Assembly (NCBI GenBank): GCA_020351995.1
Contig: CP070674.1
Location: 1,413,307 to 1,477,306, forward strand
Direction: 5' to 3'
Length of the DNA: 64,000 bases
Source of the DNA: Candidatus Zixiibacteriota bacterium
Lineage (GTDB): Bacteria; Zixibacteria; MSB-5A5; GN15; FEB-12
Of the stretch, positions 4,719 through 63,917 are shown piece after piece. The notes under the pieces were generated by a model. The model ran no database searches. It saw only the letters and a program-made list of their open reading frames with translations, and had not been told where the DNA came from. Numbering within the stretch: position 1 is the stretch's first letter; each line of letters starts with the position of its first letter. The position numbers and the translations under genes are program-made.

Positions 4719-7103
4719 ATGTTAGCGAAGTACGTTATACCTCTCGCGCTCGCTGCCATGTTGGTTTCCTCACTAGCCTACGCAAGCGGCGACTCTCGCC
4801 CCGCTATGAATCTCTCCCACGGCGCACCACTGGTTTTTACATCCAACGAAGGACAGTGGGATGACCAGGTCCATTTTCGAGCGAACATTAACGGGGCAAC
4901 CATCTGGTTCGCCACGGACGGTGTCTGTTATGAGTTCGTCCGGGACGTTTCAGGGAACAACGAAGCTCCCGACAGGCCCGACAAAACCGAAACTGCCCTC
5001 GAATGCCTGATGATCAAAAGCACGCTGGTTGGAGCCAACACGGCTGCGAAAGTATCGGGTGAGGGTCTTCTGGGTTACAAATCCAACTATTTCCTGGGTT
5101 CAGATCCTGCTCGCTGGCGTACCGGCGTACACAGCTACGAGGCAATCGTATACCATGACGTGTACCCGGGAATAGATCTGAGGTACTACTACAACGGCCG
5201 GAAGATGGAGTATGATTTCATTTTGTCTCCCGGTGCCGATCCTTCCGTTATACAGATTCGCTACGACGGTGTGGAATCAGTCGACGTCAATGAATACGGT
5301 GAGCTGGAAATCACCACCGCCTGGGGCACCGTTACGGAAACCTGCCCTTACATCTATCAGCAGGACGATTCCGGACGCCGGCAACTGACCGGAAGTTACA
5401 AGCTTATTTCGGAAAACAGCTTCGCCTTCAATTTAGACGACGACTACAACCCGGAAATGGCTCTGGTTATAGACCCGGTTCTGCTGTACAGCTCTTTCCT
5501 TGGAGGAAACTATACGCAGACCGCGTACGATAATGCTATTGATACCGACGGCTATGTCGTGATTGCCGGGCAGACGAGATCGGAAGATTTCCCGACTGTG
5601 GATCCTTATCAGGGTGAGCTCGCGGGCCAGTCCGACGTCTTTGCTACAAAGATAAACCCCGTCACCAGCGAGATTCTATACAGCACCTACTTCGGTGCCA
5701 CAAATGATGAAGAGGCTCCCAGGGTCGCTTTGGATTCGGAGGATAATATTTGCCTGGTTTTCAGAACCAACTCCCCCGATATGCCGACCGTCAACCCCTT
5801 TCAGTCCACTCTGGAAGGAGATCGCGATGCCTTTGTACTCAAGTTAAGCAGTACTGGTGACGCAGTTCTGGCCGCAACCTATCTCGGCGGAGATCGGGTA
5901 GAGTATCCATGGGGAATCACGGCCGATAACCAGGGCTACATGTATGTATGTGGTGAGACCGATTCTCGCTATTTCCCTCTCGAGAATGCCTATAGTACAG
6001 AAAACGCCGGCGGTGAAACGGATGGGTTTGTCACAAAACTCAGTCCCTCAGGTGATGCGTTGATTTACAGCACGTATCTCGGTGGAAGCGGCTCAACCGG
6101 TCTTACGGTCGCGGACGTCGATGCTTTGTATGATATCGCCGTAAATGACGCCGGAGAGGCCTATGTTGCCGGAGCCACGTACTCGCCAGATTACCCAGCC
6201 GTTAACGCCCTCTTCGAAACCATGATCAACAAAGAAGGTCCTACTGACGCCATAATAACCAAGTTCAGTGCTGCCGGAAACACCCTTGTCTTCAGTACCT
6301 TCCTCGGGGGCACCGAGGACGAGTGGATAAAGGATATCGAGATCGACGCCGACGGCAATCTGGTTATCGTTGGTTCCGTCGAATCGGACGATTTCCCAAC
6401 CTTAAATGCCTACCAGACAGAACGATGCCCTGGACCGGATCTGGGCATGGCCGCTGTTTTTATGACAAGAATGGCCGGCGACGGCAGCGCTCTTTTGTCA
6501 AGCACGTATCTCGGCGGGTGCGATGAGGATTTCGGAGAGGCATTGGGTATCGGACCAACCGGAAACATATTTATAAGCGGTACTACTTACTCAACCGATT
6601 TCCCCATGGTCGATCCCATCTACGGAGCACTCAACGGTGTGTGTGACGTTTTTCTCACAAAATTCGATTCGTCAGGATCAAACGTCATTTACAGCACCTA
6701 CTATGGCGGCAGCTCGGGCGATCATGGCATAGGCCTAAGCGTCGATAATAACGACTGGGCCCACATTACCGGGTACACACGGTCGTCTGACTTACCGCTG
6801 GTCAACCCGACACAAGCCAACGGGACCACCTATCCAAGCGGTAATGACGTCTTTCTAGCCATGATCAAAGGCGGATGCTGTAGATGGCTGACCGGTAACG
6901 CAGATGGTGACCCGAGTGACCGTCTGGACATACTTGATATTGGCTACGCCATTGACTGGCTGTTCCGCCAGGGCCCGGCGCTGCCGTGCGGGGCTGAACT
7001 CGACACCGATGCCAGCGGTCGACTCGATATAGAAGATATCGTGTATTTAGTAAATTACTTTTTCAAGTCGGGACCAGAACCGCTTCCGTGCCTCGATAAT
7101 TGA
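4719..7103 (+). CDS. Secreted SBBP beta-propeller-repeat protein with C-terminal dockerin-like module (subtype 1)
   Basis: 794 aa with a signal peptide (MLAKYVIPLALAAMLVSSLAYA). Many repeats of the pattern YSTY(L/F)GG...(D)..G..Y(V/I).G.T.S.DFP, the SBBP type. C-terminus at 6870..7100 reads GGCCRWLTGNADGDPSDRLDILDIGYAIDWLFRQGPALPCGAELDTDASGRLDIEDIVYLVNYFFKSGPEPLPC. Confidence 0.85.
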   Translation: MLAKYVIPLALAAMLVSSLAYASGDSRPAMNLSHGAPLVFTSNEGQWDDQVHFRANINGATIWFATDGVCYEFVRDVSGNNEAPDRPDKTETALECLMIKSTLVGANTAAKVSGEGLLGYKSNYFLGSDPARWRTGVHSYEAIVYHDVYPGIDLRYYYNGRKMEYDFILSPGADPSVIQIRYDGVESVDVNEYGELEITTAWGTVTETCPYIYQQDDSGRRQLTGSYKLISENSFAFNLDDDYNPEMALVIDPVLLYSSFLGGNYTQTAYDNAIDTDGYVVIAGQTRSEDFPTVDPYQGELAGQSDVFATKINPVTSEILYSTYFGATNDEEAPRVALDSEDNICLVFRTNSPDMPTVNPFQSTLEGDRDAFVLKLSSTGDAVLAATYLGGDRVEYPWGITADNQGYMYVCGETDSRYFPLENAYSTENAGGETDGFVTKLSPSGDALIYSTYLGGSGSTGLTVADVDALYDIAVNDAGEAYVAGATYSPDYPAVNALFETMINKEGPTDAIITKFSAAGNTLVFSTFLGGTEDEWIKDIEIDADGNLVIVGSVESDDFPTLNAYQTERCPGPDLGMAAVFMTRMAGDGSALLSSTYLGGCDEDFGEALGIGPTGNIFISGTTYSTDFPMVDPIYGALNGVCDVFLTKFDSSGSNVIYSTYYGGSSGDHGIGLSVDNNDWAHITGYTRSSDLPLVNPTQANGTTYPSGNDVFLAMIKGGCCRWLTGNADGDPSDRLDILDIGYAIDWLFRQGPALPCGAELDTDASGRLDIEDIVYLVNYFFKSGPEPLPCLDN

Positions 7104-7273: not shown

Positions 7274-9616
7274 ATGTTGCAAAGAAAACTAATCGCCAGC
7301 TCGCTTCTGTTCACGACCCTGCTGCTCATGGTATTATTTAGCGCGGGGCAATTGGGCGCGGCGAGCGACCCGGGACAGAATCAGTCTCCGTTTTTCACAG
7401 AGAACGTTGGCCAATGGGACAGTCACATCAGATTCAAGACTGGTTCCATGGATGCCACAGCCTGGTTTGCCGACGACGGCACCTATTACCAGTTTTCCAG
7501 AGAAATAATCGAGAACAAACATCCCGACGCCATGAAGACGCCTGTTCGCGAGAGCATAGACTTCGAATGCTTGATGATCAAGGCAAGCTTCATCGGAACG
7601 AGCGCCGCTCTCAAGATCGTCGGTGAAGAAATGCTGGACTACAAATGTAATTACTTCCTCGGCAACGACCAGACAAGATGGCAAACCAATGTCCCTAACT
7701 ACAGCTCCATTCTTTATCGCAATATTTATAACGGAATCAATCTCAGATATTATGGCAACGGTTCCGAGTTAGAATATGATTTTATAGTAGCTCCCGGGGT
7801 CGATCCGTCACAGATACAGATTCGCTACGACGGGATCGAATCGCTGGCGGTCAACGGCGATGGAGAACTTGAGGTTACCACACTATGGGGCACTATAATC
7901 GAATCCTGCCCGTATATCTATCAGGTCGACGGCGACGAGCAGATTGAGCTTTCCGGAAGCTACGAGCTAATTTCGGATAACAGCTTCGGTTTTGCCGTAG
8001 ACGCGATCTATGATGCCAGACTCCCGGTTGTAATCGACCCGATTCTGACCTACAGCACTTATTTCGGGGGGACGCGCGCTGACTATGCCGTGACCCTTGA
8101 AATTGACGATGCTCGCAACGTATACATTGCCGGCGTTACCTCGTCATCGGATTTCCCTCTTCTATTTCCATACCAGGCGACCTATGGCGGATCCATAGAT
8201 GCCTTCGTGACCAAGATGGAGCTCGACGGCACCCTGCTGTTCAGCACCTACTTTGGCGGAGTCGGTGCCGAAGAGTGGCCTACCATGGCCCTCGATGACG
8301 AGTTTAACATTTACATCTCGGGCCGGACATTTTCAAGCGACTTCCCGGCCTACCTCGGGTATTCCAACGAGATGAACGGTAACTCGGATCTATTCGCCTT
8401 CAAACTCAATAGCACGGGCGATCAACTGATCTACAGTTCCTTTCTGGGCGGCAGCGCTGACGAATACGCGGGCTATGTGGACGTTGACCCAAACCGCAGA
8501 TTTTATGTTTTTGCCATCACCGAATCCGATGATTACCCGCTGGTGAATCACTTCCAGACCTATCCCAGCCAGAACCCGGTCTCCTATGATCTCTGCCTGA
8601 CCAGATTCAATACCGCCGGGAATGACCTGGAATACAGCACCTATCTGGGCGGGACTGAAGACGAGTCCGCCCTGGGTATCGCGGTAGATGCAGCCGGCTG
8701 CGCCCATGTCTGCGGTTACACTTACTCACCCGAGTTCCCCGTAGAAAACCCTTATGATGCCGTTCAGGAAGGATGCGATGGCTTCATCACCAAGTTCAGC
8801 CCCGAGGGGAATAGCCTGATTTTTGGTACATTCTTCGGCGGAACGGAAAACGACTGGATTGAAGCCATTGACGTGGACGGGGAAGGCGGCGTATATGTGA
8901 CCGGTTCAACGAGGTCGGACGATTTCCCGCTCGTAAATCCCTTTCAGTCAGAATTTCGCGGAGGCGTCGATCTCATCACTGATTTATTCGCTTCCAAGTT
9001 TAACAGCACCGGCACAACCCTCATTTACAGCACCTACCTCGGGGGAACCGGTGACGACTTTGTCGAAAAGATCCTGATTGATGACCTCGGGGTCGCTATC
9101 ATCTCCGGATATACTTACTCGGCGGACTTCCCGCTTGTCAACCCGCTGTTCAGCGACCTCAATGGTATATACGATGCGAGCTTGAGTGCCCTCGGGCCAA
9201 CGGGGAACGAACTCACCTTCGGCACCTATCTCGGTGGCAGTGAAACGGAAATTGGCTGGGATCTTGCCGTCGACGAGGTTCGTAATGTATATCTCGTAGG
9301 GTTCACCAAGTCGCCGGATTTCCCTCTCGTCGACCCCATCCAGACCACGCTGAAAGGAACATTCGACGGTTTCGTGGCAATTATTGAACTGGGTTGTTGC
9401 GTCGGCATGTCCGGCAACGCCGATCATGATCCCGATGACCTGGTTTCGATTCTCGACGCCGATTACCTTATAAGCTGGATGCATCGAGGCGGTCCGGAGC
9501 CTTTATGCTTCGGAGAGGCCGACCTCGATGGCAGCGGCGCATTGAATATTCTGGATGTTGACTACTTGGTCAACTACTTATTCAGGGATGGACCTCCACC
9601 TGTCATTTGCGAGTAA
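7274..9616 (+). CDS. Secreted SBBP beta-propeller-repeat protein with C-terminal dockerin-like module (paralog of 4719..7103)
   Basis: 780 aa, collinear with the upstream gene. The N-terminal domains match (FTENVGQWDSHIRFK vs FTSNEGQWDDQVHFR) and the SBBP repeats are shared. C-terminus at 9389..9613 reads LGCCVGMSGNADHDPDDLVSILDADYLISWMHRGGPEPLCFGEADLDGSGALNILDVDYLVNYLFRDGPPPVIC. Confidence 0.85.
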   Translation: MLQRKLIASSLLFTTLLLMVLFSAGQLGAASDPGQNQSPFFTENVGQWDSHIRFKTGSMDATAWFADDGTYYQFSREIIENKHPDAMKTPVRESIDFECLMIKASFIGTSAALKIVGEEMLDYKCNYFLGNDQTRWQTNVPNYSSILYRNIYNGINLRYYGNGSELEYDFIVAPGVDPSQIQIRYDGIESLAVNGDGELEVTTLWGTIIESCPYIYQVDGDEQIELSGSYELISDNSFGFAVDAIYDARLPVVIDPILTYSTYFGGTRADYAVTLEIDDARNVYIAGVTSSSDFPLLFPYQATYGGSIDAFVTKMELDGTLLFSTYFGGVGAEEWPTMALDDEFNIYISGRTFSSDFPAYLGYSNEMNGNSDLFAFKLNSTGDQLIYSSFLGGSADEYAGYVDVDPNRRFYVFAITESDDYPLVNHFQTYPSQNPVSYDLCLTRFNTAGNDLEYSTYLGGTEDESALGIAVDAAGCAHVCGYTYSPEFPVENPYDAVQEGCDGFITKFSPEGNSLIFGTFFGGTENDWIEAIDVDGEGGVYVTGSTRSDDFPLVNPFQSEFRGGVDLITDLFASKFNSTGTTLIYSTYLGGTGDDFVEKILIDDLGVAIISGYTYSADFPLVNPLFSDLNGIYDASLSALGPTGNELTFGTYLGGSETEIGWDLAVDEVRNVYLVGFTKSPDFPLVDPIQTTLKGTFDGFVAIIELGCCVGMSGNADHDPDDLVSILDADYLISWMHRGGPEPLCFGEADLDGSGALNILDVDYLVNYLFRDGPPPVICE

Positions 9617-13711: not shown

Positions 13712-13743
13712 AAAAAAAAGACCGCCTCGGTACTGAAGCGGTC
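13712..13743 (-). terminator. Intrinsic terminator candidate after 13771..14844
   Basis: On the minus strand, GACCGC-12 nt-GCGGTC is followed by eight T (the A-run at 13712..13719 on plus). Confidence 0.55.
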
Positions 13744-13770: not shown

Positions 13771-14844
13771 TCAGTTGTCAGCGATGATCTTTTTCAGCGC
13801 AACTACATCAAGCAAATCCACTCGCCCGCTACCATCAACATCGAACCTCAAATCATTCGGGGTGGCGTCACGCGTATGGAACAGGTAGTTCATCAATACG
13901 TCCACGTCCCCGTTATCAGTTATCCCGTCGGCGTTAAGGTCAGCCCCGGGATAGATATGCACCACCAGATCACCAATCATCTCGAATCTTGTCTTATCGA
14001 GGAACTTCCCTGAAACGGTGTACGCCAGCTCTATATCGCCGGTCAATGGTTCATAGGGCTTGAGAAGATTCTTCAAGGCAACGGTGGCCCGGATAGCCTT
14101 TCCTCCATAGACGGGATCCTGCTGAACCACCATTATGGTCCTCGGTTTTACGGCATCAACCTTCACGGACTTAAGGTCAACGTCGTATACGTCTTTCCCC
14201 CACTCACAGAAATTCCCGAAATAGATGTCCACGAATCCTCTTATCGGCGTTGTAGTGACGATATACCCCGGATCCGCATACGTGAATGGGTCGGGGCAAG
14301 CGTCGCCAATGGTATACTCATATGGGCCTCCCCAGTCAGGCACCACATTTACGTCCCCCCATATCCAGTGGTCTACCGGCGGATAGGAAGACGAATCCAC
14401 GATAATCGTCTTTTCGGCGTGTTCGCTATCGATCGGCCCTATTGTGATAGTATAGGCCGGTTCGTCAAAGAACGGCGGCATCCCGGTACCGATCACGTCC
14501 ATGGCGACAAAACCTACCGTGTCGGCTACGGAACCGTCGCAACTGAACGTCAATAAACCGATTGGACCGGTAATATAACGGGTCAGGCCATCGGGAACCG
14601 TGTCAGGAACGGTAGCCGTCCACTCCGCACCATCGGGCGAGTATACCCTGAACCCATTGTCAAGAATCCGATGATAGTCCTCATCGCCGGTAACGTGAAG
14701 AACGAACTCTATCGTTTCACCGAGCTTGAGAGTGCCGTCGGGGTTGGTAGCCTCCACGTCCTCAATCCAGATTGACTGACCCCATGCCGCACTGCCGAAA
14801 AACATAAACAGGACAAACACGAGAAACAATCCTGCCAGTCTCAT
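13771..14844 (-). CDS. Secreted protein, third member of the family with 15091..16770 and 17193..18344; C-terminal dockerin-like module (subtype 2)
   Basis: The ORF track starts at 14856. I prefer the ATG at 14844 because ATGGGAGGTATTATG places a GGAGG just upstream of it. Signal peptide MRLAGLFLVFVLFMFFGSAAWG. C-terminus at 13774..13950 reads DLNADGITDNGDVDVLMNYLF...FDVDGSGRVDLLDVVALKKII. Confidence 0.8.
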   Translation of the reverse strand: MRLAGLFLVFVLFMFFGSAAWGQSIWIEDVEATNPDGTLKLGETIEFVLHVTGDEDYHRILDNGFRVYSPDGAEWTATVPDTVPDGLTRYITGPIGLLTFSCDGSVADTVGFVAMDVIGTGMPPFFDEPAYTITIGPIDSEHAEKTIIVDSSSYPPVDHWIWGDVNVVPDWGGPYEYTIGDACPDPFTYADPGYIVTTTPIRGFVDIYFGNFCEWGKDVYDVDLKSVKVDAVKPRTIMVVQQDPVYGGKAIRATVALKNLLKPYEPLTGDIELAYTVSGKFLDKTRFEMIGDLVVHIYPGADLNADGITDNGDVDVLMNYLFHTRDATPNDLRFDVDGSGRVDLLDVVALKKIIADN

Positions 14845-14926
14845 AATACCTCCCATTGAATCAGGTTTAAAGGATTAGTGTTTTTCCCAGCAGCGTCAAT
14901 TGTGAGGGGGGCTACGCTGCGACCGC

Positions 14927-14955
14927 AATATAGCTGGAGGCCCCCGTCTTGTCAA
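14927..14955 (-). promoter_or_regulatory. Sigma70-type promoter TTGACA-N17-TATATT for 13771..14844
   Basis: The minus strand reads cgTTGACAagacgggggcctccagcTATATTgc, with -35 at 14950..14955 and -10 at 14927..14932. Confidence 0.65.
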
Positions 14956-15021
14956 CGATATGCCCGGACAATCTGCCACAAATTGCGGCCTTTCGACACA
15001 AATTCGCCGGGCGTAAGCCAC

Positions 15022-15051
15022 AAAAAAACCCGCCCTGTAAAGGGCGGGTTT
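15022..15051 (-). terminator. Intrinsic terminator after 15091..16770
   Basis: The minus strand reads AAACCCGCCC-tttaca-GGGCGGGTTT followed by a T-run (the A-run at 15022..15028 on plus). Confidence 0.8.
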
Positions 15052-15090
15052 GTATTCTGATGCCTGAACGAATCAGACAACTCAGTTCGT

Positions 15091-16770
15091 TTACTGCATG
15101 ACGATATCAATGATAGCGCGAACGTCGAGCAGGTCGATACGCCCACTGTCATCGACATCCATGCACTCATCCATTCTCTCGCCCCAGAGCGTAGCTCTCG
15201 GGCCACCATTGAACAACCAGTCTATCATGAAGACTGCGTCTTCGATGTTGGTCACGCCGTCAAAGGTGACGTCGCCAACATACATCGTCAGGTTGAACAG
15301 GAACGTGAGCGTCTGATCGCCACCGGACTTGTAATCATAGTAGACCGGGCAGGGTCTATCCTGATAACCATCCGACGGAACCGGGCGCATACCACCGGCA
15401 CCAAGGAAGCGCATAATGAAACAATCCGTCACCAGCGCTGAATCATCTCCAAAATACTCTATTTGAGGATGATCAGCGGAGTAGGGCGGGATGTTGAACA
15501 CGCGGATGGTTCCCCAGTCAATGTCTTCAAAATCATCGCACCAGATACGAACGTCAAGTCTTCTCTCATTCTCAAGCGCTTTGAGTTTGGTCGTCTCCGG
15601 GAAGCAAGTAGCATAAGGGTCACAGCCTGAGACCGTAATCGTAAAGTCCTCGTCATCGCTCAACCCGGCAGTGTTGGTAGCGGTAACCGTAACCGCATGA
15701 ACACCAACCGCGGCGGTCCAGTCGATCACGCCGGTCACGGGCTCAATAGTCATGCCGGCGGGGCCAGCGATTGAAAAGGTCGGGGGAATCGGATAGCCGA
15801 CTTCGTCGAGTTCGACGTTATAAGTGAACGCCGCACCCTCGGTGGCTGTTTGGTCATCAATCGCGGTTATAACCGGAGCCTTATTGACCACGATCACGAA
15901 CTCCTCGGTTGCTTCGCTCGGGCAGTCGTTGGAAACTCTGACGGTTACGGGGTGGGTGCCTTTAACGCAGGTCCAGTTGATTAGGCCGCTCACAGGGTCA
16001 ATAGTCATGCCGGCCGGAGCGCCGGGGTCCAGCGCGAAAGTAATAGGAGCGTCACCGGTCGCGTCAACATCGTAGGTAAAAGCGTCGCCATCCAGGTACG
16101 GGCCGGCTGGAGCGGTCGTAGCAATCGCCACATCTTCACAGCCACCTGGCTCGAACTGAAACACGTACGGGCCATCCCAGGCGATCGAATCGCCAACGGC
16201 GGTCCAGAGCCAGAAGTTGCCCGGCTCCCAGTACGTGGTATCCAAAACCAGTTGGGCCTCCGCGGCGCCCGCGACACTGGCAACGTTCAAGGAATAAAGC
16301 CAGTTATTGAATCCCGCCGGCAAACCATCCCCTTCGTTAGACACACCGGCGATACCCAGACCACCAAGACCCTTGGTAAGGGCGGCAGCTCCCCAGTACA
16401 TGTCGAACCAGGAATAGCATCCTTGGAACGGGTAGCAGCCCGCCATGAACGCGCACTCCATTTCGAATGGGTAAGTGCAGTTCTTTCCCAGGGTCACTCC
16501 GCCAATGGTAACACCATCCGGAGAATCGAAGTAGAAGCCGTTCGAAATCGCGGTGCGGACCTCATTCACGCCATCACGATTTAGATTTAAGAAGTAAATT
16601 GGAATTACCAGATCACCACCAGCCAGGGGAATCTTTCCCTCGGCGGTCAGCCCTGTCACCTCGGCGAGATCTACATAGACCCTGCAGGAGTCTACTTGGG
16701 CGGTTGCCAGGCTGAATGAGGCAATTACCAAAACAGCAAGCAATGCTGTCACTTTGATGGGTGCTCTCAT
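15091..16770 (-). CDS. Secreted protein: family N-domain + two He_PIG/cadherin-like Ig domains + pre-dockerin module + dockerin-like module (subtype 2)
   Basis: 559 aa with signal peptide MRAPIKVTALLAVLVIASFSLATA. Ig-type repeats include FTYDVDATGDAPITFALDPGAPAGMTIDPVSGLINWT and FTYNVELDEVGYPIPPTFSIAGPAGMTIEPVTGVIDWT. C-terminus at 15094..15279 reads GDVTFDGVTNIEDAVFMIDWLFNGG...DVDDSGRIDLLDVRAIIDIV. Confidence 0.85.
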   Translation of the reverse strand: MRAPIKVTALLAVLVIASFSLATAQVDSCRVYVDLAEVTGLTAEGKIPLAGGDLVIPIYFLNLNRDGVNEVRTAISNGFYFDSPDGVTIGGVTLGKNCTYPFEMECAFMAGCYPFQGCYSWFDMYWGAAALTKGLGGLGIAGVSNEGDGLPAGFNNWLYSLNVASVAGAAEAQLVLDTTYWEPGNFWLWTAVGDSIAWDGPYVFQFEPGGCEDVAIATTAPAGPYLDGDAFTYDVDATGDAPITFALDPGAPAGMTIDPVSGLINWTCVKGTHPVTVRVSNDCPSEATEEFVIVVNKAPVITAIDDQTATEGAAFTYNVELDEVGYPIPPTFSIAGPAGMTIEPVTGVIDWTAAVGVHAVTVTATNTAGLSDDEDFTITVSGCDPYATCFPETTKLKALENERRLDVRIWCDDFEDIDWGTIRVFNIPPYSADHPQIEYFGDDSALVTDCFIMRFLGAGGMRPVPSDGYQDRPCPVYYDYKSGGDQTLTFLFNLTMYVGDVTFDGVTNIEDAVFMIDWLFNGGPRATLWGERMDECMDVDDSGRIDLLDVRAIIDIVMQ

Positions 16771-16812
16771 AATTTCTCCCTCAAATAGAGTTGAAAAGTT
16801 TATTGGGTTGTA
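16771..16812 (-). repeat. Conserved ATG-proximal leader block shared with 18345..18386
   Basis: By hand alignment, 38 of 42 nt are identical to the block upstream of the paralog. It contains the GAGGGAG RBS. Confidence 0.8.
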
Positions 16813-16961
16813 AACGGTAGTATTCTCCCAAAAATGCTGCGTCTAATCTTTTGCGACGATTTAGTGTGTCGTCACAAGTATTCCAAGCCACCCGGGTTAG
16901 CTAACACTTTTGATAAAGGCGGCGGAAGTAAACGGAACAGTAAGATTAATTCGTACACAAA

Positions 16962-16990
16962 AATATATCATCCGCAACCCATTTTGTCAA
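16962..16990 (-). promoter_or_regulatory. Sigma70-type promoter TTGACA-N17-TATATT for 15091..16770
   Basis: The minus strand reads gcaTTGACAaaatgggttgcggatgaTATATTttt. This implies a leader of about 185 nt. Confidence 0.65.
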
Positions 16991-17115
16991 TGCCAAAAAC
17001 GCGTCCTGACGGCAATTCTTTTCACAATACTTTATTAAAGTTTAAGGGATTAGCAAAAGCCGATATATTTTCTCCTATATTGCTGAGTTGCGGCGCAGGT
17101 GCCCCGGGACCACCG

Positions 17116-17148
17116 AAAAAAAACCCGCCCCTTTAGCAGAAGCGGGTT
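17116..17148 (-). terminator. Intrinsic terminator candidate after 17193..18344
   Basis: AACCCGC / GCGGGTT stem (17122..17128 and 17142..17148) followed on the minus strand by an 8-T run. Confidence 0.6.
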
Positions 17149-17192
17149 CTTATTCAGATTCCTGAAGCTATTCGATAGCTCAGACGCCTGTC

Positions 17193-18344
17193 TTAGTACA
17201 CATACTCGATCAGCGCCCGAATATCGAGCAGGTCAAAGCGACCACTCTGGTCGAAGTCCATGAATTCATCCATCCGATAACCGTCATAGGTGCAGGGCTC
17301 TCCGCCGTGGAAGAGGTAGTCAATCATGAAGACTACGTCATCGTTATTGACGGCGCCGTCAAAGTTCACATCGCCCTGGCTGATCATCTGAAGGAAGTCG
17401 CCATACAGAGTGTTTTCGCCACCAGCTAAATAGCTGTACGTGACCCAATACTCACCGGTATAGTCATCGGCAGGCAGCGGACGGAAGCCACCTGAGCCAA
17501 GGAAGCGCATCAGGTAGGCGTTGGTAACGACTGAGTCACCTTCGACCCAGGCCAGACCCTCATTAGTGTAGCACGGGATCTTGCCGAAGATCTTGACCGT
17601 GCCCAAGTCAACCGCATACGGATCATCTTCGCAATGAATCGAAACGTTCAGAACGCGGTCATTGTCATTGACACCGATCTCAAACGGGTTAGGCCAGCAA
17701 GTGGTAAACGGCCCTTCCGGACACGGGTCAAAACCACCCACGAATAGCGGGTCTGGAGGGGTCCAGCCCACATTAGCGCCAACACCGGTCCAGAGCCAGA
17801 AGTTGCCCGGTTCCCAGTAAGTAGTATCCATAACCAGCTGGGCCCCCAGCGGGCCGGAAACGCCCCAAGCCTTGATGGCGTAAATCCAGTCATCAAATCC
17901 CGGGGGAAGACCAGTACCCTTTTCCGCCAGGCCAGCAATACCCAGACCACCAAGACCCTTGGTAAGATCGGTGGCCGAGAAGTACATGTCAAACCAGGAA
18001 TAGCAATTGAACGGCTCGAATGGATAGCAGCCATTCATGATCGCGCACTCAAGGTCAACATTGTACACGCAGTTCTTGATAAGACTCAACGAATCAATGG
18101 TGACGCCGTCGGGCGATAAGAAGTAGTACCCGTTCGATACCGCGGTACGGAAATCCTCGGCGCCACTGGTGTTAACAAAGTGGATCGGAAATTCGAGGTC
18201 GGCGCCGACATCAGGGATATTGCCCTCTCCGTCAAGACCCGCAATCTCGCTATTAAGCACATAGACCTCTTGCCCCTGTGCGAAACCGAACGAGAAGAGT
18301 ACCATAACAGCAAGTAGTACTGTTGCTTTGAAGGGTGCTCTCAT
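17193..18344 (-). CDS. Secreted protein, short paralog of 15091..16770 (no Ig insert); dockerin-like module (subtype 2)
   Basis: 383 aa with signal peptide MRAPFKATVLLAVMVLFSFGFAQG. The N-domain is collinear with the paralog (LTKGLGGLGIAG, DTTYWEPGNFWLWT). C-terminus at 17196..17378 reads GDVNFDGAVNNDDVVFMIDYLFHGG...DFDQSGRFDLLDIRALIEYVY. Confidence 0.85.
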   Translation of the reverse strand: MRAPFKATVLLAVMVLFSFGFAQGQEVYVLNSEIAGLDGEGNIPDVGADLEFPIHFVNTSGAEDFRTAVSNGYYFLSPDGVTIDSLSLIKNCVYNVDLECAIMNGCYPFEPFNCYSWFDMYFSATDLTKGLGGLGIAGLAEKGTGLPPGFDDWIYAIKAWGVSGPLGAQLVMDTTYWEPGNFWLWTGVGANVGWTPPDPLFVGGFDPCPEGPFTTCWPNPFEIGVNDNDRVLNVSIHCEDDPYAVDLGTVKIFGKIPCYTNEGLAWVEGDSVVTNAYLMRFLGSGGFRPLPADDYTGEYWVTYSYLAGGENTLYGDFLQMISQGDVNFDGAVNNDDVVFMIDYLFHGGEPCTYDGYRMDEFMDFDQSGRFDLLDIRALIEYVY

Positions 18345-18533: not shown

Positions 18534-18562
18534 AATATAACAATAATCGACCTGGCTGTCAA
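18534..18562 (-). promoter_or_regulatory. Sigma70-type promoter TTGACA-N17-TATATT for 17193..18344
   Basis: The minus strand reads ggTTGACAgccaggtcgattattgtTATATTtcc. This implies a leader of about 185 nt. Confidence 0.65.
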
Positions 18563-26659: not shown

Positions 26660-29600
26660 CTATGGCACGTTGATTGTGTAACTCTGGTAGTCGGTGCCAT
26701 AGTCATTGGTCGCCTCAATCACGACATCGTAATCGCCCGAAGAACCGGGCGTAAACTCCACTTCGCCGGTCACAGGGTCTATGGTCATCCCGCTCGGGTA
26801 GGTTGTCAATGCGTAAGTTGGGGCGGGATACCCGCTGGCGTCAGCGTCGTACGTGTACAGTACACCGACGGACCCGGTCGTTATCGGCGTGGACGTAAAC
26901 GACGGCGCAATTCCAACTACCGTAATAGCAAATGACTGAGTGTCGCTGCCGTAAGAGTTGATAGCAACAACCGTGACGTCATAATCACCAACATCAGCCG
27001 GGGTCCACTCGATCACGCCGGTATTGGCATCGACTGTCATACCCGACGGCTTTGTCGTCAGCGCGTAAGTCGGGGCCGGATAGCCATCAGCTTCAACATC
27101 ATAGCTGTAAAGTTGACCGTAGGTACCCGTTGTGACCGCCGTGGAAGTGATTGTCGGGACCTCGACGATGGTCAACACGAAGTCATCAGTATCGGTGCCG
27201 TAAGCGTTGGTAGCTTCAACGACTACATCGAAATCACCCACTCCCGTCGGGGTCCAGGCAATTTCCCCGGTGATGGGATCAATCGTCATTCCCGTCGGGT
27301 AAGTCGTCAGCGAATAGGTTGGAGCAGGGTAACCCGTGGCATCGGCATCTTCAGTGAAACCTACGCTAAGAAGCTGTACCTGATCAGGGATATCAGCCAG
27401 GAAAGGCGCCACGCCCGATACACTGATAGTGAACGGCTGCGTATCGGTGCCATAAATATTGGTAGCTTCAACAACCACATTATAATCGCCTATATCCGAC
27501 GGTGTCCACTCTACCACACCCGTATTGGCGTCAATTGTCATACCTGTTGGGTATGTTGTCAGTGAGTAAGTTGCCGCCGGGTAGCCTCCGGCCTCGGCGT
27601 CATAGCTATACAATTGGCCATAAGTACCTGTCGTCACCGGCGTTGACGTAAACGCCGGGGCAACACCTGTCACCGAGATCGTGAAGCTCTGGGGTGTCGT
27701 TCCAGCGGAGTTGGTGGCTTCAATGACAACGTCGACATTCCCGGTATCAGACGGCGTCCAGCGAACCAAACCCGTACCACTATTGATAGTCATTCCCGCG
27801 GGGTACGTAGTAAGAGAATATGTCGGCGTCGGCTCACCGGTAGCGTCGGCGTTGTACTCATAGAGTACATTATAGGTACCGGTGGTTATCGGAGTCGAGG
27901 TGAAGGTCGGCGGTATTCCTACAACGGTAAGGATGAAACTCTGGGTGTCGGCGCCATTAACATTAGCCGCTTCAACCTCCACATCGTAATCCCCGATACT
28001 GCCCGGGGTCCAAGTAATTACACCAGTGGTGGCGTTAATCTTCATGGCCGAAGGAGACGTTATCAAATCGAACGTAGGTGCCGGATTTCCCGTAGCCTCG
28101 ACATCATAAGTGTATGGTTGGTCAATCGTGGCAGTCGTAACCGGTGTTGATGTTATCACGGCTCCAGCCGGGGCCGCCGATACACTGATCGTGAAATTCT
28201 GGTATGCGGTTCCATAAGTGTTAGTGGCCTCGATTTCGACATCGTAGTCACCCTCCGAATCCGGGGTCCATTCCACAAGACCGGTTCCGCTATTAATCGT
28301 CATTCCGGTCGGATAGGTGGTTAGCGAATACGTCGGGGTCGGATAACCATCGGCATCCGCGTCATAGGAATATAGTACACCGGTTACTCCGGTAGTGACC
28401 GGCGTCGAGGTAAAGCTCGGCGCGACACCGCTCACGGATATGGTAAAGCTCTGATAATCCGTGCCGTAAATATTGGTAGCTTCCACCACAACATCGGCAT
28501 CGCCGGTGGCGTCTGGTGTCCATTCAATGACACCGGTGTTGCCATCGATGGTCATCCCGGTCGGGTACGTTGTGAGAGCGAATGTCGCCGCAGGGTATCC
28601 GCTGGCATTGGCATCATAGCTGTAGAGCTGACCGTAAGTCGCCGTGGTAACAGGAGTTGACGTAAACGCTGGAGCCACACCGGTGACACCGATAGTATAG
28701 CTCTGCTGTGTACTTCCGGCGGCATTGATCGCTTCGATAACGACATCGACATCACCCGTATCTGCGGGCGTCCAGCGTACAACACCGGTTCCACTATTGA
28801 TTGTCATACCGGCTGGCCCATCGAGCAGGGCGTAGGTAGGCGTGGGATCGCCCGTGGCGTCGGCATCATACTCGTACTGTACACCGTAGGTCGCCGTAAG
28901 AATCGGCGTGGAGGTAAAGCTTGGAGCAACTCCCGACACCGTCACCACGAAACTCTGGGTGTCGGCGCCATTGACGTTAAGAGCCTCCACTTCAACATCG
29001 AAGTCACCGACAGACCCCGGTGTCCAGCTGATAAGCCCGGTCGTTGAGTTGATGTTCATGCCCGACGGCGAGGTAATGAGGTCAAACGTCGGGGCCGGGT
29101 AGCCGGTAGCCTCAACGTCGTAAGCATACGCCTGCCCCACCGTCACGCTCGTGACAGGTGTAGAGGTAATCACCGGTGGTTCCGGGGTTCCGGAAACCGA
29201 TATGGTGTAATTCTGAATATCAAGACCGTAGGCGTTACTGGCTTCGATAGTAACATCAACATCACCCTCTTCGGTCGGTGTCCACTGCACCACACCGGTC
29301 GCCGGATCAATCGTCATACCGGTCGGGAATTCTGTAAGGGCGAACGTCGCCGCCGGGTAACCGTCGGTCTCGGCATCATAACTATATAGCACTCCAACCA
29401 CACCGGTCGTCGGAGGACTTGATATAAAAGTCGGGGCAATGCCGGCCACCGAAATAGTGAAATTCTGAATGTCCGTTCCATAAGCGTTTGCGGCCTCGAC
29501 GATGACATTATGATCGCCATCATCATCCGGTGTCCACTGAATAAGGCCGCTCGCCGGGTCAATCGTCATTCCGGTGGGGAAGGTTGTCAGCGAGAACGTA

Positions 29601-32182
29601 GCCGCCGGGTAACCATCGGCGTCGGCATCATAACTATATAATTGTTGATATGTTCCGGTGGTGATCGGGGTCGAGGTAAAGGTCGGCGCGATTCCGGCTA
29701 CCGATATGGTGAAGCTCTGCGGATCGGTACCCGAACTGTTACTGGCTTCAACCACAACATCGTAATCCCCTACGTCACCAGGCGTCCACTGAATCAGCCC
29801 CGTAGCCGGGTCGATGGTCATCCCGGTAGGGTAAGTCGTGAGCGCGAAGGTTGGGGCCGGATTGCCGCTTGCTTCAACATCGTATGTGTATAATTGATTG
29901 TACGTCCCGGTGAGAATAGGAGTCGAGGTGATCACTGGCGCCTCGGCAGGCAGGACCGAGATTGTGAAATTCTGCGGCGTCGTGCCGGCCGAGTTAGTGG
30001 CCTCCAGAACAACGTCGTAGTCACCGTCCGAAGGCGGAGTCCACTGGATAAGACCGGTAATAGGATCGACAGTCATTCCGGCCGGAAAGGTAACCAGAGA
30101 ATAACTGGGCACCGGATACCCGTCAGCATCGGCGTCATAAACATATAGTTCACCGGAAACACCTGTCAGGGGTGGGCTTGTGGTAAACGAAGGGGCGATA
30201 CCGCTGACCGAGATGGTATAGGGCTGATAATCATCGCCCCACGTATTCGAAGCGTTAATGGTAACATCGAAATCGCCAACGTCATCCGGCGTCCATTCTA
30301 CGAGGCCGGTAACCGGATCGATAGTCATTCCCGGCGGTGCCAAAGTAAGTGAGAAATCCGGATCTGGGTCGCCATCGGCGTTGGCGTCATAGCTATACAG
30401 CACACCGTAAGTAGCCGTCGTTACTGGAGTGGACGTGAACATGGGCGCGATTCCGCCGAGGGGACAGTCGATTGGAGCGGGGCCGCCGCGGTGCAGGTAG
30501 TCGATCAAATAGTCAACATCGAGAATATCTACCTGGTCATTGTCATCGGCATCGGCCTCCTGCTCGCAAATCGGTGCCGAGCCGTCTCGAAAGAGATAGT
30601 CGACTATAAAGTCCAGGTCAAGAAGATCGAATTGACCGTTATGGTCGGCATCGCCACGCAATTCACAGCACTCCAGCCATTCAAGCTCGGTGTTGACGTA
30701 TAAATACATTCGCTCACCCACAATTGAGTCAACCCGCACATAGATGCCCGAATAACCATAGTAACTGTCACTGCTCGGATAAGTCTGCGGACCAAACTCG
30801 CTCTGTCCGGGGACATCGGACGAAAAAAGCGCCCCTTTTCTGGTCTCCCAGGGATACCACCATTGGGCGCTGTCGGTCAAACGGCCTTCAGGGTTATAAG
30901 TATAATCCTTGAGCGGGTTGTAACCGGCATCCTCGACGCACACGGCATAGTGGGGATCTAAGGGCGTTCCCTGGTTGAGTGATATAATCTCTTGGGGGTC
31001 GACCAGCGAATCATCAATATGTGTTATCAATAGTCCGCGGTCCAGCACGTCATAACCGAACGTGAGATTGGGATAGAACCATGAGCAAAAATCGGAGTCG
31101 AATTTATCGAACTTACCTGCTGACTGCGGATTTCGGTACTCGAGTAAGAAGTACTCCAGGTCGCTGTCATTGATGGGTATTCTATATAATGAAGAATCTG
31201 CGGTTGTCTCAACATTGTATATGACGAGATCATGATACTCGCCCTCAAGAATGATCGGCTCGATATACCCCAGCCGCACCTTGTTCCAGCCGCAGTAATG
31301 ATTGGCGCTTACCCCGCCCAGCGACAAATAACCGTAGCCATAGTAACCCATTGGATCCCAATCAACAAGCGGATGGTCGTTCTGGTCGTTCGCAATATTA
31401 TAGGTCGATGTCACCAGTTTGCCGTCGTAGTCGTACAGGTCTGCCAGGCCGATGTTATGGCCAACTTCGTGAACAAACACGCGGATACCGCTCCGTACAG
31501 TCTCTCCGCTGAACTGCACCGGGTATATGGGGTCCCGCAGTGGTTTGAGCTCCGGACAGGTGTTCCAGGCGTCCACCTGGACCCGGTCATAGCGGCCCCA
31601 GCCCTGATCACTGGCAGCGGCATAGGACCAGATATCGAGAGGATCCTGGGAATCTTCTTCTCCGACACCGGAACGGATGAAACAGATCGCGTCGGCCTTC
31701 CTATCCTCGTTGCCATCATATAGAGAATAGTCAATGTACGGATCTAATATCTCAAACAGCGAACTGAATGGAAAATACTTTCCAAATGTGGGGCCGGCGT
31801 TGTACCAATCAAATACATCGCCGGTAAGCTTCACCTGGCCATACGAAACCTCATGGATGTAATCGGCCAGAGAACCCTCGGGAAGAACGTCGCGGGAGAA
31901 GAGCAAAGTATCGAAAGCCTGCCATGGTAACGTCCCGGGCCGATCTCCCCATTCCACCAGAATAGCCAGCAGCCTGAGACTGTCTCCCTTAAAGCTTGCC
32001 GCTGAGAGGAGGTCAGCTTGTGTCCCGGCATATCCGTGCCAGGGAAGTCTGCCCCATTGAACCTGGACCTGTGATTCGGGCATATCGAAGACGAGAAAAT
32101 AATCGGGGTCGGAAGCCAGCGCGGGCACGCCAAGGAGTAAGACAAGGCTGCCAATTAGAAGTTTTCTGGGCATTTTCTTCAC
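26660..32182 (-). CDS. Giant secreted protein: M6/InhA-like metalloprotease domain + internal dockerin-like module + 15 tandem He_PIG/cadherin-like Ig repeats
   Basis: 1840 aa with signal peptide MKKMPRKLLIGSLVLLLGVPALA. Zinc site FVHEVGHNIGLADLYDYDG, with HEVGH at 31457..31471. Dockerin-like CCELRGDADHNGQFDLLDLDFIVDYLFRDGSAPICEQEADADDNDQVDILDVDYLIDYLHRGGPAPIDC at 30455..30673. Repeats span 26663..30454. Confidence 0.9.
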   Translation of the reverse strand: MKKMPRKLLIGSLVLLLGVPALASDPDYFLVFDMPESQVQVQWGRLPWHGYAGTQADLLSAASFKGDSLRLLAILVEWGDRPGTLPWQAFDTLLFSRDVLPEGSLADYIHEVSYGQVKLTGDVFDWYNAGPTFGKYFPFSSLFEILDPYIDYSLYDGNEDRKADAICFIRSGVGEEDSQDPLDIWSYAAASDQGWGRYDRVQVDAWNTCPELKPLRDPIYPVQFSGETVRSGIRVFVHEVGHNIGLADLYDYDGKLVTSTYNIANDQNDHPLVDWDPMGYYGYGYLSLGGVSANHYCGWNKVRLGYIEPIILEGEYHDLVIYNVETTADSSLYRIPINDSDLEYFLLEYRNPQSAGKFDKFDSDFCSWFYPNLTFGYDVLDRGLLITHIDDSLVDPQEIISLNQGTPLDPHYAVCVEDAGYNPLKDYTYNPEGRLTDSAQWWYPWETRKGALFSSDVPGQSEFGPQTYPSSDSYYGYSGIYVRVDSIVGERMYLYVNTELEWLECCELRGDADHNGQFDLLDLDFIVDYLFRDGSAPICEQEADADDNDQVDILDVDYLIDYLHRGGPAPIDCPLGGIAPMFTSTPVTTATYGVLYSYDANADGDPDPDFSLTLAPPGMTIDPVTGLVEWTPDDVGDFDVTINASNTWGDDYQPYTISVSGIAPSFTTSPPLTGVSGELYVYDADADGYPVPSYSLVTFPAGMTVDPITGLIQWTPPSDGDYDVVLEATNSAGTTPQNFTISVLPAEAPVITSTPILTGTYNQLYTYDVEASGNPAPTFALTTYPTGMTIDPATGLIQWTPGDVGDYDVVVEASNSSGTDPQSFTISVAGIAPTFTSTPITTGTYQQLYSYDADADGYPAATFSLTTFPTGMTIDPASGLIQWTPDDDGDHNVIVEAANAYGTDIQNFTISVAGIAPTFISSPPTTGVVGVLYSYDAETDGYPAATFALTEFPTGMTIDPATGVVQWTPTEEGDVDVTIEASNAYGLDIQNYTISVSGTPEPPVITSTPVTSVTVGQAYAYDVEATGYPAPTFDLITSPSGMNINSTTGLISWTPGSVGDFDVEVEALNVNGADTQSFVVTVSGVAPSFTSTPILTATYGVQYEYDADATGDPTPTYALLDGPAGMTINSGTGVVRWTPADTGDVDVVIEAINAAGSTQQSYTIGVTGVAPAFTSTPVTTATYGQLYSYDANASGYPAATFALTTYPTGMTIDGNTGVIEWTPDATGDADVVVEATNIYGTDYQSFTISVSGVAPSFTSTPVTTGVTGVLYSYDADADGYPTPTYSLTTYPTGMTINSGTGLVEWTPDSEGDYDVEIEATNTYGTAYQNFTISVSAAPAGAVITSTPVTTATIDQPYTYDVEATGNPAPTFDLITSPSAMKINATTGVITWTPGSIGDYDVEVEAANVNGADTQSFILTVVGIPPTFTSTPITTGTYNVLYEYNADATGEPTPTYSLTTYPAGMTINSGTGLVRWTPSDTGNVDVVIEATNSAGTTPQSFTISVTGVAPAFTSTPVTTGTYGQLYSYDAEAGGYPAATYSLTTYPTGMTIDANTGVVEWTPSDIGDYNVVVEATNIYGTDTQPFTISVSGVAPFLADIPDQVQLLSVGFTEDADATGYPAPTYSLTTYPTGMTIDPITGEIAWTPTGVGDFDVVVEATNAYGTDTDDFVLTIVEVPTITSTAVTTGTYGQLYSYDVEADGYPAPTYALTTKPSGMTVDANTGVIEWTPADVGDYDVTVVAINSYGSDTQSFAITVVGIAPSFTSTPITTGSVGVLYTYDADASGYPAPTYALTTYPSGMTIDPVTGEVEFTPGSSGDYDVVIEATNDYGTDYQSYTINVP
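26663..30454 (-). repeat. 15 tandem coding repeats of 246-258 nt (82-86 aa Ig-like units)
   Basis: Repeat boundaries counted by hand. Consensus: G(V/I)AP.FTSTP.TT.TYG.LYSYDADA.GYPAPTY.LTTYP.GMTID..TG...WTP...GDYDVV.EATN.YGTD.Q.FTISV. Confidence 0.9.
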
Positions 32183-42579: not shown

Positions 42580-44082
42580 CTATGGCCGAATCACCTTTCG
42601 GGCAACGGTGCCATCGGGCTCCACGACTATCAAAGCCACTCGCTCCTTGACAGGCAGTTCCCGGCTGATGCGGTCAATATCTTCAATCGACGAAACCGAC
42701 TTATTATTCACCTGCACGATCACCGTTCCCATGGAAATCGACGACCGGTCGGCTGGTCCGCCCCGGGCAACTCGGCGCACATAGACACCGTCAATTCGCT
42801 CGACTGCCAGCGCCTGGGCAACCGCTTCCGTAAACGTCACCAGTTCCATCCCCAGCCAACTTTTAACCTCAAGATTACCTGAGGCATCCCCCTCTGTCGA
42901 GCCGTCCATGGAGGCCAGGAAACTGTCTCGGTCACCGATCACCGTCTTCAAGGTCATCCTTTTACCGTTGCGCACAATCTCTACCGGATAGGGTTGACCG
43001 GCGCGCAACTGCGAAACCGCCACCGAAAGCTGGCTGATGTTGTCAACCGGATGATTATCCACACTCAGTATGATATCACCGGCCTTTATACCAGCCCGCT
43101 CCGCCGGAGAGTTCGCAAAAACAGAATCGATCTTCACACCACGCATGGCATCCAAACCCTGGCGCCGCGCCTCCTGTTCCGTCAGATTGCCCAGAATCAC
43201 ACCAAGCCATCCCCGGCTGACTTTGCCGGTAGCAATCAAATCGGGTACCACCGTCCGGGCCAGATTGATCGGAATCGCGAATCCAATTCCCACCGAGCCG
43301 CCCGTGGGACTGGAGATAGCCGCGTTGACCCCGATGCACTCGCCGCGAATATTGAGCAACGGACCCCCGGAATTCCCCAGGTTGATCGAGGCATCGGTCT
43401 GAATATAATCCTGATAGGTCGGTGTTTCCCGCCGACCGAAATTCAGGTTGCTTCGACCCTTGGCCGAGACCACACCCACCGTCACGGATCGAAATAGACC
43501 CTGCTCAGGAAAAGGATTACCGATAGCGATCGCCCAACTTCCGACTTTGATGGCTTCCGAGTCGCCGAAAGGTATAACTGTTATCTGCTCTTCCGGTTCA
43601 ATCTTTATCACGGCCAGGTCTGTCAGCGGGTCAGCACCGACCAACCGCGCCTCATACTGATAACCGCTGGCTGTCGTTACATTGATCTGCTGGGACCCCT
43701 CAATGACATGGTTGTTGGTGAGAATGTAACCGTCATCGCGAAAGAAGAAGCCCGAACCCGCCGACGTTGAATAAGACGGGCCATGATGCCACCACGGTAA
43801 ATCCTCCAGCTTGGTACGAGCCGATATGTGAACAACCGCCTGCTGGGCATTCTCGACCACCGCTACGAAAGGCGACTCCAGATCACCGCCGACATTTACC
43901 ACCGGATAAGCCAGAAATGAATCAGGATCCACGGGATCCTGGGCCACCGATTTGGTGGTCAGGTCGAGGTTGGAGGAGATAATAATCCCCGCGACGAGGC
44001 AAACGGCCGCGACGATTATGACAACAAGAAAGCGTTGCCCCCTGGATGCGCTGTTTTCAGGGGAGAGAGAGCGCGAGTTCAA
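42580..44082 (-). CDS. htrA: HtrA/DegP-family periplasmic serine protease with two PDZ domains
   Basis: 500 aa. The catalytic triad context is intact: TNNHVIEG, LTDLAVIKIE and GNSGGPLLN. TTG start in the ORF track, so the start is uncertain. Confidence 0.9.
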   Translation of the reverse strand: MNSRSLSPENSASRGQRFLVVIIVAAVCLVAGIIISSNLDLTTKSVAQDPVDPDSFLAYPVVNVGGDLESPFVAVVENAQQAVVHISARTKLEDLPWWHHGPSYSTSAGSGFFFRDDGYILTNNHVIEGSQQINVTTASGYQYEARLVGADPLTDLAVIKIEPEEQITVIPFGDSEAIKVGSWAIAIGNPFPEQGLFRSVTVGVVSAKGRSNLNFGRRETPTYQDYIQTDASINLGNSGGPLLNIRGECIGVNAAISSPTGGSVGIGFAIPINLARTVVPDLIATGKVSRGWLGVILGNLTEQEARRQGLDAMRGVKIDSVFANSPAERAGIKAGDIILSVDNHPVDNISQLSVAVSQLRAGQPYPVEIVRNGKRMTLKTVIGDRDSFLASMDGSTEGDASGNLEVKSWLGMELVTFTEAVAQALAVERIDGVYVRRVARGGPADRSSISMGTVIVQVNNKSVSSIEDIDRISRELPVKERVALIVVEPDGTVARKVIRP

Positions 44083-63780: not shown

Positions 63781-63917
63781 ACAAACCTCCTCGCGGAGAA
63801 AAAGGTTCAGCACAAGTACGACCCTTCCAGTCGCAACGCCTGGCTTTACTTTGAGATAACCGCATACACCGGGAAACTCCGGTGACCAGATCGCTGGCTC
63901 GCCCGATCTTCTGCCTG

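Follow-up and report, generated by a model that had tools for sequence, protein, structure and literature searches.

Dockerins are abundant in uncultured bacteria of the Fibrobacteres–Chlorobi–Bacteroidetes (FCB) group, such as Zixibacteria and Calditrichota, and their assemblies are essentially unstudied. The 64,000-nucleotide stretch of DNA analyzed here as a whole (the window; contig CP070674.1, forward-strand positions 1,413,307 to 1,477,306, of the Candidatus Zixiibacteriota metagenome-assembled genome (MAG) GCA_020351995.1) encodes three paralogous exoproteins, designated as A, B and C, each of which joins an N-terminal domain (N-domain) to a C-terminal dockerin. The question raised by this locus is what the N-domain does on a dockerin-bearing protein. 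A sequence-only reading of the window had proposed that the N-domain is cohesin-like, so that the dockerin and its receptor would sit in one polypeptide. We characterized the architecture of the three proteins, the predicted fold of the N-domain, and the family to which it belongs. A, B and C are most likely binding proteins that a dockerin tethers within a cellulosome-like surface system of this Zixibacteria MAG. As for the N-domain, we give about even odds to its being a binding module that has no catalytic function and is displayed by a dockerin, a secretion tail or a lipid anchor; its ligand would most likely be a glycan, a particle or a cell surface.

Architecture of the three proteins

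As the sequence-only reading had claimed, the open reading frame (ORF) listing of the window contains three paralogues, all on the minus strand: gene A at 13771..14844 (357 aa), gene B at 15091..16770 (559 aa; JSV52_06420) and gene C at 17193..18344 (383 aa). The product of gene C is identical in sequence to JSV52_06425 of the Candidatus Zixiibacteriota MAG, which is annotated at NCBI as a hypothetical protein. It comprises a putative signal peptide (aa 1–25, MRAPFKATVLLAVMVLFSFGFAQGQ; 18270..18344), which was assigned, like those of A and B, by inspection of the sequence; the N-domain (aa 26–205; 17730..18269), a predicted nine-strand β sandwich whose best PDB matches are cohesins; an immunoglobulin (Ig)-like β-sandwich module (aa 207–318; 17391..17726); and a dockerin (aa 319–383; 17196..17390) with the Ca-loop motifs DVNFDGAVNNDD and DFDQSGRFDLLD. 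Protein B has the same layout, with two He_PIG Ig domains (~aa 212–380; 15631..16137; Pfam He_PIG E = 8.5e-19, two stretches) inserted between its N-domain (aa 26–209; 16144..16695) and an Ig-like module (aa 381–493; 15292..15630) delimited by alignment with that of C; its dockerin (aa 494–559; 15094..15291) also has two Ca-loop motifs. Protein A, laid out as C, consists of an N-domain (aa 24–182; 14299..14775), an Ig-like module (aa 183–297; 13954..14298), again placed by alignment with C, and a dockerin (aa 298–357; 13774..13953) with the motifs DLNADGITDNGD and DVDGSGRVDLLD. All of these features lie on the minus strand. The three proteins align over their whole length, except for the Ig insert of B, and the C-terminal half of A, including the dockerin, is 34% identical to that of C. 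The shared order of signal peptide, N-domain, β-rich module of ~112 aa and dockerin was therefore correctly recognized in the sequence-only reading; the N-domain, at ~160–185 aa, is shorter than the 190 aa claimed there, and the He_PIG insert of B had not been described.

The N-domains of B and C are 56% identical to each other, whereas that of A, which represents the family's mainstream type and is 39–53% identical to relatives in other MAGs, shares only 20–24% identity with them. The three nevertheless belong to one family because all match a single family hidden Markov model (HMM) far beyond chance (E = 7.9e-52, 1.1e-34 and 4.2e-33 for A, B and C, respectively). The landmark motifs listed earlier for the N-domain were approximately right; C has NGY rather than NGF, A has GMPPFF where a motif ending in GF had been given, and B has LDTT. 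No Pfam family matched the N-terminal 160–185 residues of any of the three proteins.

Against the curated cut-off of Pfam Dockerin_1 (PF00404), 22.9 bits, the C-termini of A (24.7 bits) and C (25.8 bits) score above and that of B (15.8 bits) below. With a local HMM of the family's own dockerins, B is matched at E = 3.6e-28 for the whole protein and 3.6e-27 for the dockerin stretch. A motif scan found two D-x-[ND]-x-[DN]-G-x5-D loops in each of A, B and C, and the dockerin region of the C model (AlphaFold2) forms three helices. Given the profile matches and the two Ca2+-loop repeats in each protein, the three C-termini can be classed as dockerins on sequence grounds. By motif scan and HMM, six ORFs of the window carry dockerin-like modules, which agrees with the six implied earlier, and the N-domain is the commonest dockerin partner among them. 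Pfam and HMM scans found no C-terminal domain of the type IX secretion system (T9SS; Por_Secre_tail) in A, B or C. Each of them has one N-domain copy, and the dockerin is its sole anchor.

Predicted fold of the N-domain

The N-domain of C was modeled with AlphaFold2 from a 12-sequence alignment. The model (mean predicted local distance difference test score (pLDDT), 79.1; predicted template modeling score, 0.79) has nine strands and a single short helix; its loop at residues 151–174, which was modeled with low confidence, contains three near-invariant Trp residues. A conserved Trp-rich loop between β8 and β9 is extra relative to cohesins, as is, in B and C, an insert rich in Cys between β4 and β5. 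When the model was compared with the PDB by Foldseek, no match was found at E ≤ 0.001. Of the 50 best matches, 33 were cohesins, which came from many species and covered types I, II and III, with probabilities of ~1.0. Their template modeling (TM) scores, which are Foldseek scores and not those of TM-align, were 0.45–0.51 when normalized to the query and 0.55–0.59 when normalized to the target; a TM score of 0.5 is the usual same-fold mark. Other matches among the 50 were pilins, Als adhesins and the carbohydrate-binding module (CBM) family CBM2, with query-normalized scores of 0.24–0.35. A recent structure-based survey of cohesins used a TM-align threshold of 0.65; our highest Foldseek score, 0.59, is under that value, which is a criterion of a different scoring program.

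The C-terminal half of C, likewise modeled with AlphaFold2 (pLDDT 81.7), served as an internal control. The best Foldseek matches of its Ig-like module were NCAM Ig1, an α2-macroglobulin MG domain and CopC, and no cohesin was present among its 50 best matches. The cohesin match of the N-domain is thus not a generic β-sandwich effect. The structural check bears out the suggestion of a cohesin-like N-domain as far as the predicted fold is concerned, with a nine-strand jelly roll and cohesins as the best matches, at moderate strength and with TM scores of at most 0.59; it does not extend to a sequence-level link or to membership of the cohesin family.

N-domain sequences versus cohesins

Pfam Cohesin (PF00963) did not match full-length A, B, C or 25 diverse family members at E ≤ 1, and no Pfam CBM family matched A, B, C or 25 family members. 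Two family profiles retrieved no PDB chain at E ≤ 10. Alignment of the N-domain by hhalign with a CipA-type cohesin alignment and with 1AOH gave probabilities of 0.2–1.4%. The alignment to 1AOH has the same register as the one made by eye in the sequence-only reading and beats 80 of 80 shuffles. We rejected this shuffle result (0/80) as a weak cohesin signal, since unrelated β domains score alike: the hhalign score against the CipA cohesin was 17.3, compared with 16.5–17.4 for unrelated β domains from the window and the relatives, and three other cohesins scored only 10.6–13. The strand resemblance to type-I cohesins noted by eye is therefore not above background. The CipA cohesin profile is shallow (11 close relatives; effective number of sequences, ~2), and in a positive control a Pfam-validated cohesin of the FCB group reached a probability of only 1.9–5.8% against CipA. 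Because this control was insensitive, the hhalign negatives have little weight and the Pfam negatives have more.

Distribution and partners of the N-domain family

The family, for which Pfam has no model, numbers 684 cluster representatives at E ≤ 0.001 by exhaustive profile search, of which 281 remain at E ≤ 1e-10; only 6 proteins were retrieved when a diverse alignment of the N-domain was used in a word-index search. Among species-representative genomes, the family is found in MAGs labeled Zixibacteria, Calditrichota, Ignavibacteriales, GN15, FCB group and Bacteroidetes, and a genome often has several copies.

Partner statistics were compiled for the 157 best representatives, which have one to five N-domain copies per protein. 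Dockerin-like modules are present in 104 of them (66%) and a T9SS C-terminal domain (CTD) in 46 (29%), with both in 18 and neither in 25. Among 93 N-domain ORFs from genome loci, 45 have a dockerin and 20 a CTD. The arrangements are diverse: N-domain followed by dockerin (P0021, 267 aa), dockerin followed by N-domain (P0116 and P0096), N-domain with CTD (P0011 and P0022), and short lipoprotein-like forms with the N-domain alone (P0123 and P0140). P0034 combines Peptidase_C10 and PKD with three N-domain copies. In P0019 (833 aa) and P0051 (828 aa), four dockerins alternate with three N-domains, beginning and ending with a dockerin and with almost no linker; the second and third dockerin/N-domain units of P0019 are nearly identical, which indicates a recent duplication. 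P0014–P0016 carry a T9SS CTD; P0015 and P0016 have four or five N-domain copies in front of a C-terminal cassette. This cassette, which consists of a segment X1 (~150 aa), a dockerin, a segment X2 (~135 aa) and the T9SS CTD, is conserved in 18 of the 157 representatives (P0015, P0016, P0033, P0038, P0040 and others). By eye, X1 and X2 have cohesin-like motifs, e.g., LRGVQLEL versus GVAGVELHL. Neither had a Pfam match at E ≤ 1 or at E ≤ 10, and HMM matches of X2 to cohesin-bearing ORFs were driven mainly by the motif at the start of the CTD. If X2 is a cohesin, each cassette protein would combine an anchor with both a cohesin and a dockerin.

Pfam scanning of 45 large relatives matched 42 families. 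The 25 most frequent of these include CTD, dockerin, PKD, BACON_2, He_PIG, TSP_3, cadherin-like, CARDB and LamG domains and are almost all non-catalytic; no glycoside hydrolase is among these 25 of the 42 families. Peptidases are rare beside the N-domain, namely Peptidase_M6 in one protein and Peptidase_C10 in P0034.

Canonical cohesins, scored against the Pfam Cohesin cut-off of 24.1 bits, occur in two of the 45 large relatives. P0037 has an N-domain, two Ig domains, four cohesins, a further N-domain, an Ig domain and a cohesin (58.7 bits). P0112 has a signal peptide, a cohesin, an N-domain, and Ig domains alternating with cohesins ahead of a T9SS CTD (signal peptide–cohesin–N–Ig–cohesin–Ig–cohesin...CTD; 49.2 bits, three stretches). 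The genome loci L008 and L018 have the same scaffoldin-like layout, each with a small cohesin–CTD gene upstream. No cohesin was found near P0003 on the contig that encodes it. Given that canonical cohesins adjoin the N-domain in the same proteins, the N-domain is a module distinct from cohesin, and some N-domain lineages, at least, possess a dockerin receptor of the ordinary kind.

Conservation within the N-domain is highest in β8 (2.81 bits), followed by β3 (2.34 bits) and β6 (1.85 bits), compared with 0.5–0.6 bits in β4 and β5, and D148, W158, W160 and W169 are invariant or nearly so. This pattern fits a specific putative binding site. Cys and His residues are conserved in mainstream members and lacking in A, B and C, and the idea of a catalytic Cys/His pair was dropped on that ground.

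One further genome, GCA_975963145.1, contributed observations on the surroundings of family members. At L081 (CDLTIA010000129.1, 675-6934), two tandem N-domain–CTD genes directly follow the gene for a 1149-aa protein that has a weak dockerin at its C-terminus and no Pfam match, an order that recalls scaffoldin/enzyme gene clusters. At L080 (1562-5227), near a syntenic pair of C-like and B-like genes, there are pilin-like genes (N_methyl, PilX_N and DUF7305) and a gene for a 1757-aa He_PIG protein.

Role of the N-domain

In the scheme that we favor, A, B and C would be modular proteins that are exported by the Sec route, have no catalytic function and belong to a cellulosome-like surface assembly. 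The C-terminal dockerin would act as a Ca2+-dependent plug onto a cohesin-bearing partner at the cell surface or in the extracellular matrix, and the Ig-like module, together with the He_PIG domains in B, would be a spacer comparable with the X-module of X-dockerin dyads. The N-domain would be the payload: a member of an undescribed FCB-group domain family with a cohesin/CBM-like β-jelly-roll fold that probably binds a ligand, either as an adhesin or in CBM-like targeting, through a putative surface formed by the conserved β8–β3–β6 region, the invariant Asp and the Trp-x-Trp...Trp loop. A displayed payload is suggested by the partners of the family, which are dockerins (104/157), CTDs (46/157) and lipoprotein-like forms, and by the tandem arrays of 2–5 copies, which are usual for avidity-type binding modules. 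It is also supported by the position of the N-domain next to canonical cohesins (P0112, P0037, L008 and L018), by the almost entirely non-catalytic partner domains, and by the cohesin-like jelly roll itself, since CBM3 has been reported to have a fold similar to that of cohesin and was used as a look-alike control in the structure-based cohesin survey.

Several results weigh against this scheme. The best structural matches of the N-domain are cohesins and not CBMs; CBM2 structures appear only at Foldseek ranks 19, 36 and 37, with query-normalized TM scores of 0.26–0.29. The families listed include no carbohydrate-active catalytic domain joined to the N-domain, which would be unusual for a classical CBM. 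The spacing between N-domain and dockerin is often 0–10 residues, and this linker-less juxtaposition, including the alternation in P0019 and P0051, fits a direct partnership between the two. In addition, no canonical cohesin that could receive the dockerins was found in the window or in the Zixibacteria-labeled loci. The last two points speak for another reading, in which the N-domain would be a sequence-cryptic cohesin, with A, B and C assembling head-to-tail or cross-linking dockerin proteins, and relatives with a T9SS tail or lipoprotein form acting as surface anchors. We regard this as unlikely, and likewise consider it doubtful that the N-domain constitutes a second, sequence-cryptic class of cohesins that is specific to diderm bacteria of the FCB group and binds the family's own dockerins. 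The idea can draw on the 33 of 50 Foldseek matches to cohesins of three types, on the dockerins present in 66% of the relatives, on the nine strands in cohesin order, and on the control module that retrieved none. Anchor-like forms do exist, as a single N-domain or four to five copies with a CTD, and the dockerin gene directly upstream of two such genes in GCA_975963145.1 is in line with it. The dockerin-binding face of cohesins is the 8-3-6-5 sheet (PDB 1OHZ), so that, if the topology were that of cohesin, the conserved strands β8, β3 and β6 would form the dockerin-binding sheet. There is also precedent for cohesin families that are visible only by structure. What tells against it is that neither Pfam, PDB HMM search nor hhalign gave a sequence link; that the TM scores stay at or below 0.59, compared with the TM-align criterion of 0.65; that cohesins usually show much less motif conservation between phyla than the N-domain does; and that canonical cohesins adjoin the N-domain in the same proteins as the conventional receptor in related lineages, while two thirds of the members carry a dockerin themselves, a pattern of cargo and not of receptor.

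Two further explanations dispense with a dockerin-binding N-domain. The N-domain may be a structural block with no specific ligand, in which case A, B and C would build up a surface layer or matrix, with dockerins and β-sandwich contacts joining the subunits. The non-catalytic composition, the many paralogues per genome and the tandem arrays would suit such a block, as would the strong consensus promoter-like site of each gene, which fits abundant structural proteins. We find it quite improbable, because the invariant Asp and Trp residues and the conserved face indicate a specific putative binding site, and Ig-like, He_PIG and PKD modules already serve as spacers. It is highly improbable that the N-domain is an unrecognized enzyme, e.g., of a lytic or esterase type on a β-sandwich scaffold, which its dockerin would deliver in the manner of cellulosomal enzymes. 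Its N-terminal position, where dockerin-bearing subunits have their catalytic module, and its strongly conserved polar and aromatic residues are compatible with this. However, Foldseek, Pfam and PDB profile searches gave no structural or sequence match to any enzyme, arrays of four or five copies are atypical of enzymes, and the absence from A, B and C of the Cys and His residues of mainstream members suggests a disulfide and not a catalytic dyad.

The binding-payload reading and the cryptic-cohesin reading differ in what they would imply. With a binding payload, sediment and soil bacteria would have a cellulosome-like means of adhesion that is non-enzymatic. A cryptic cohesin would be a new receptor class with a self-polymerizing use of the cohesin–dockerin pair: proteins with N-domain, Ig-like module and dockerin would self-assemble into Ca2+-dependent chains or lattices nucleated at the cell surface on anchors in which the N-domain is joined to a T9SS tail or takes a lipoprotein form. 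Some of the "orphan" dockerins that have long been in excess outside Firmicutes would thereby be accounted for.

Genes and expression signals

Each of the three genes has its own promoter-like site upstream, TTGACA-17-TATATT with 11 of 12 positions matched, at 14927..14955 for A, 16962..16990 for B and 18534..18562 for C, and a terminator-like hairpin with a T-run downstream, at 13720..13743 for A, 15026..15051 for B (11 base pairs) and 17124..17140 for C, all on the minus strand. The label "monocistronic" given to them earlier is thus reasonable. Promoter-like sites number 16 in the region, compared with 4.9 ± 2.3 in shuffles. B and C also have a common conserved leader of ~50 nt that ends in a GGGAG ribosome-binding site. 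The common promoter-like hexamers and the B/C leader suggest that A, B and C are co-regulated or strongly expressed paralogues. For A, a ribosome-binding-site-like GGGAGG is located just upstream of the ATG at 14844 and inside the alternative start at 14856, and the start at 14844, the one given in the sequence-only reading, is therefore favored.

The flanks consist of housekeeping genes, with tilS and ftsH below and a TrkA-type K+ channel gene above; a 183-aa flanking ORF below the genes was read by eye from its sequence as an hpt-like phosphoribosyltransferase. The gene order of channel, C-like and B-like is also found in a second genome, GCA_975963145.1.

Other features of the window

Two tandem paralogues on the plus strand, at 4719-7103 and 7274-9616, have DUF7948, SBBP β-propeller repeats and a C-terminal dockerin-like module and would be other dockerin cargo. 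At 26660-32182 on the minus strand, a 1840-aa protein with 15 He_PIG stretches has an internal dockerin-like module near residues 500–570, not at the C-terminus. The FG-GAP repeat protein at 62338-63813 (minus strand) carries a T9SS C-terminal sorting domain, and hence the secreted proteins of this genome include T9SS-tailed as well as dockerin-bearing ones. Two HtrA-like proteases (trypsin and PDZ) and one PDZ-only protein are encoded on the minus strand at 42580-44082, 53365-54822 and 54809-56182, near a Ser/Thr kinase (51471-53180) and a bactofilin-domain protein (57277-58521).

Comparison with known systems

Compared with cohesins (PF00963; types I–III, e.g., 1OHZ, 2CCL, 4UYP and 2ZF9), the N-domain is likewise a predicted nine-strand jelly roll of similar size, and its relatives likewise occur in tandem arrays and with surface anchors. 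It differs in the lack of a sequence-profile match, in the Trp-rich β8–β9 loop and in the Cys-rich insert of B and C; moreover, most N-domain proteins carry a dockerin themselves and some adjoin canonical cohesins. With CBM2 and the CBM3a of CipA, the N-domain has in common a predicted non-catalytic jelly roll with conserved aromatic residues and a place beside cohesins in scaffoldin-like proteins (P0112 and P0037), where clostridial scaffoldins carry a CBM. Unlike them, it has only a weak structural match to CBM2, no CBM3 among the 50 best Foldseek PDB matches, and no glycoside hydrolase fusion seen.

The C-terminal parts of A, B and C, a two-loop dockerin directly preceded by an Ig-like sandwich, resemble non-catalytic cellulosomal subunits and X-module–dockerin dyads, of which the X-DocII of CipA and CttA of R. 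flavefaciens are examples. The host here is a Gram-negative member of the FCB group, however, and the Ig-like module retrieved no X-modules in Foldseek.

The combination of cohesin and dockerin in one polypeptide, which the sequence-only reading had called undescribed, has already been described: adaptor scaffoldins carry both. In Amy4 of Ruminococcus bromii, which also has both modules, the cohesin binds the protein's own dockerin, and multimerization has been predicted; cohesin–dockerin pairs in one protein are known in other systems as well, according to the same paper. Amy4 would be the precedent for A, B and C if the N-domain were a cohesin. Its cohesin is canonical and is accompanied by a GH13 catalytic module, whereas A, B and C have only a putative cohesin and nothing catalytic.

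In the literature searched, we found no report linking Zixibacteria with dockerins and none on the N-domain family or its association with dockerins, cohesins and T9SS tails in FCB-group bacteria. A counterpart is Ca. Stygibacter (Cloacimonadota), for which a T9SS-anchored scaffoldin with cohesin, CBM2/CBM3 and CTD has been inferred. Like our family, it represents a cellulosome-like system of the FCB group with dockerin proteins and a CTD-anchored scaffoldin, and comparable layouts are seen in P0112, L018 and P0014–P0016. By analogy, the position of the N-domain beside cohesins appears to mirror that of CBM2/CBM3 in the Ca. Stygibacter scaffoldin. The payload there consists of annotated enzymes or CBMs, whereas here it is an undescribed domain, and A, B and C have no CTD. 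New in comparison with these systems are the N-domain family and the way in which uncultured bacteria of the FCB group combine it with dockerins, cohesins and T9SS tails.

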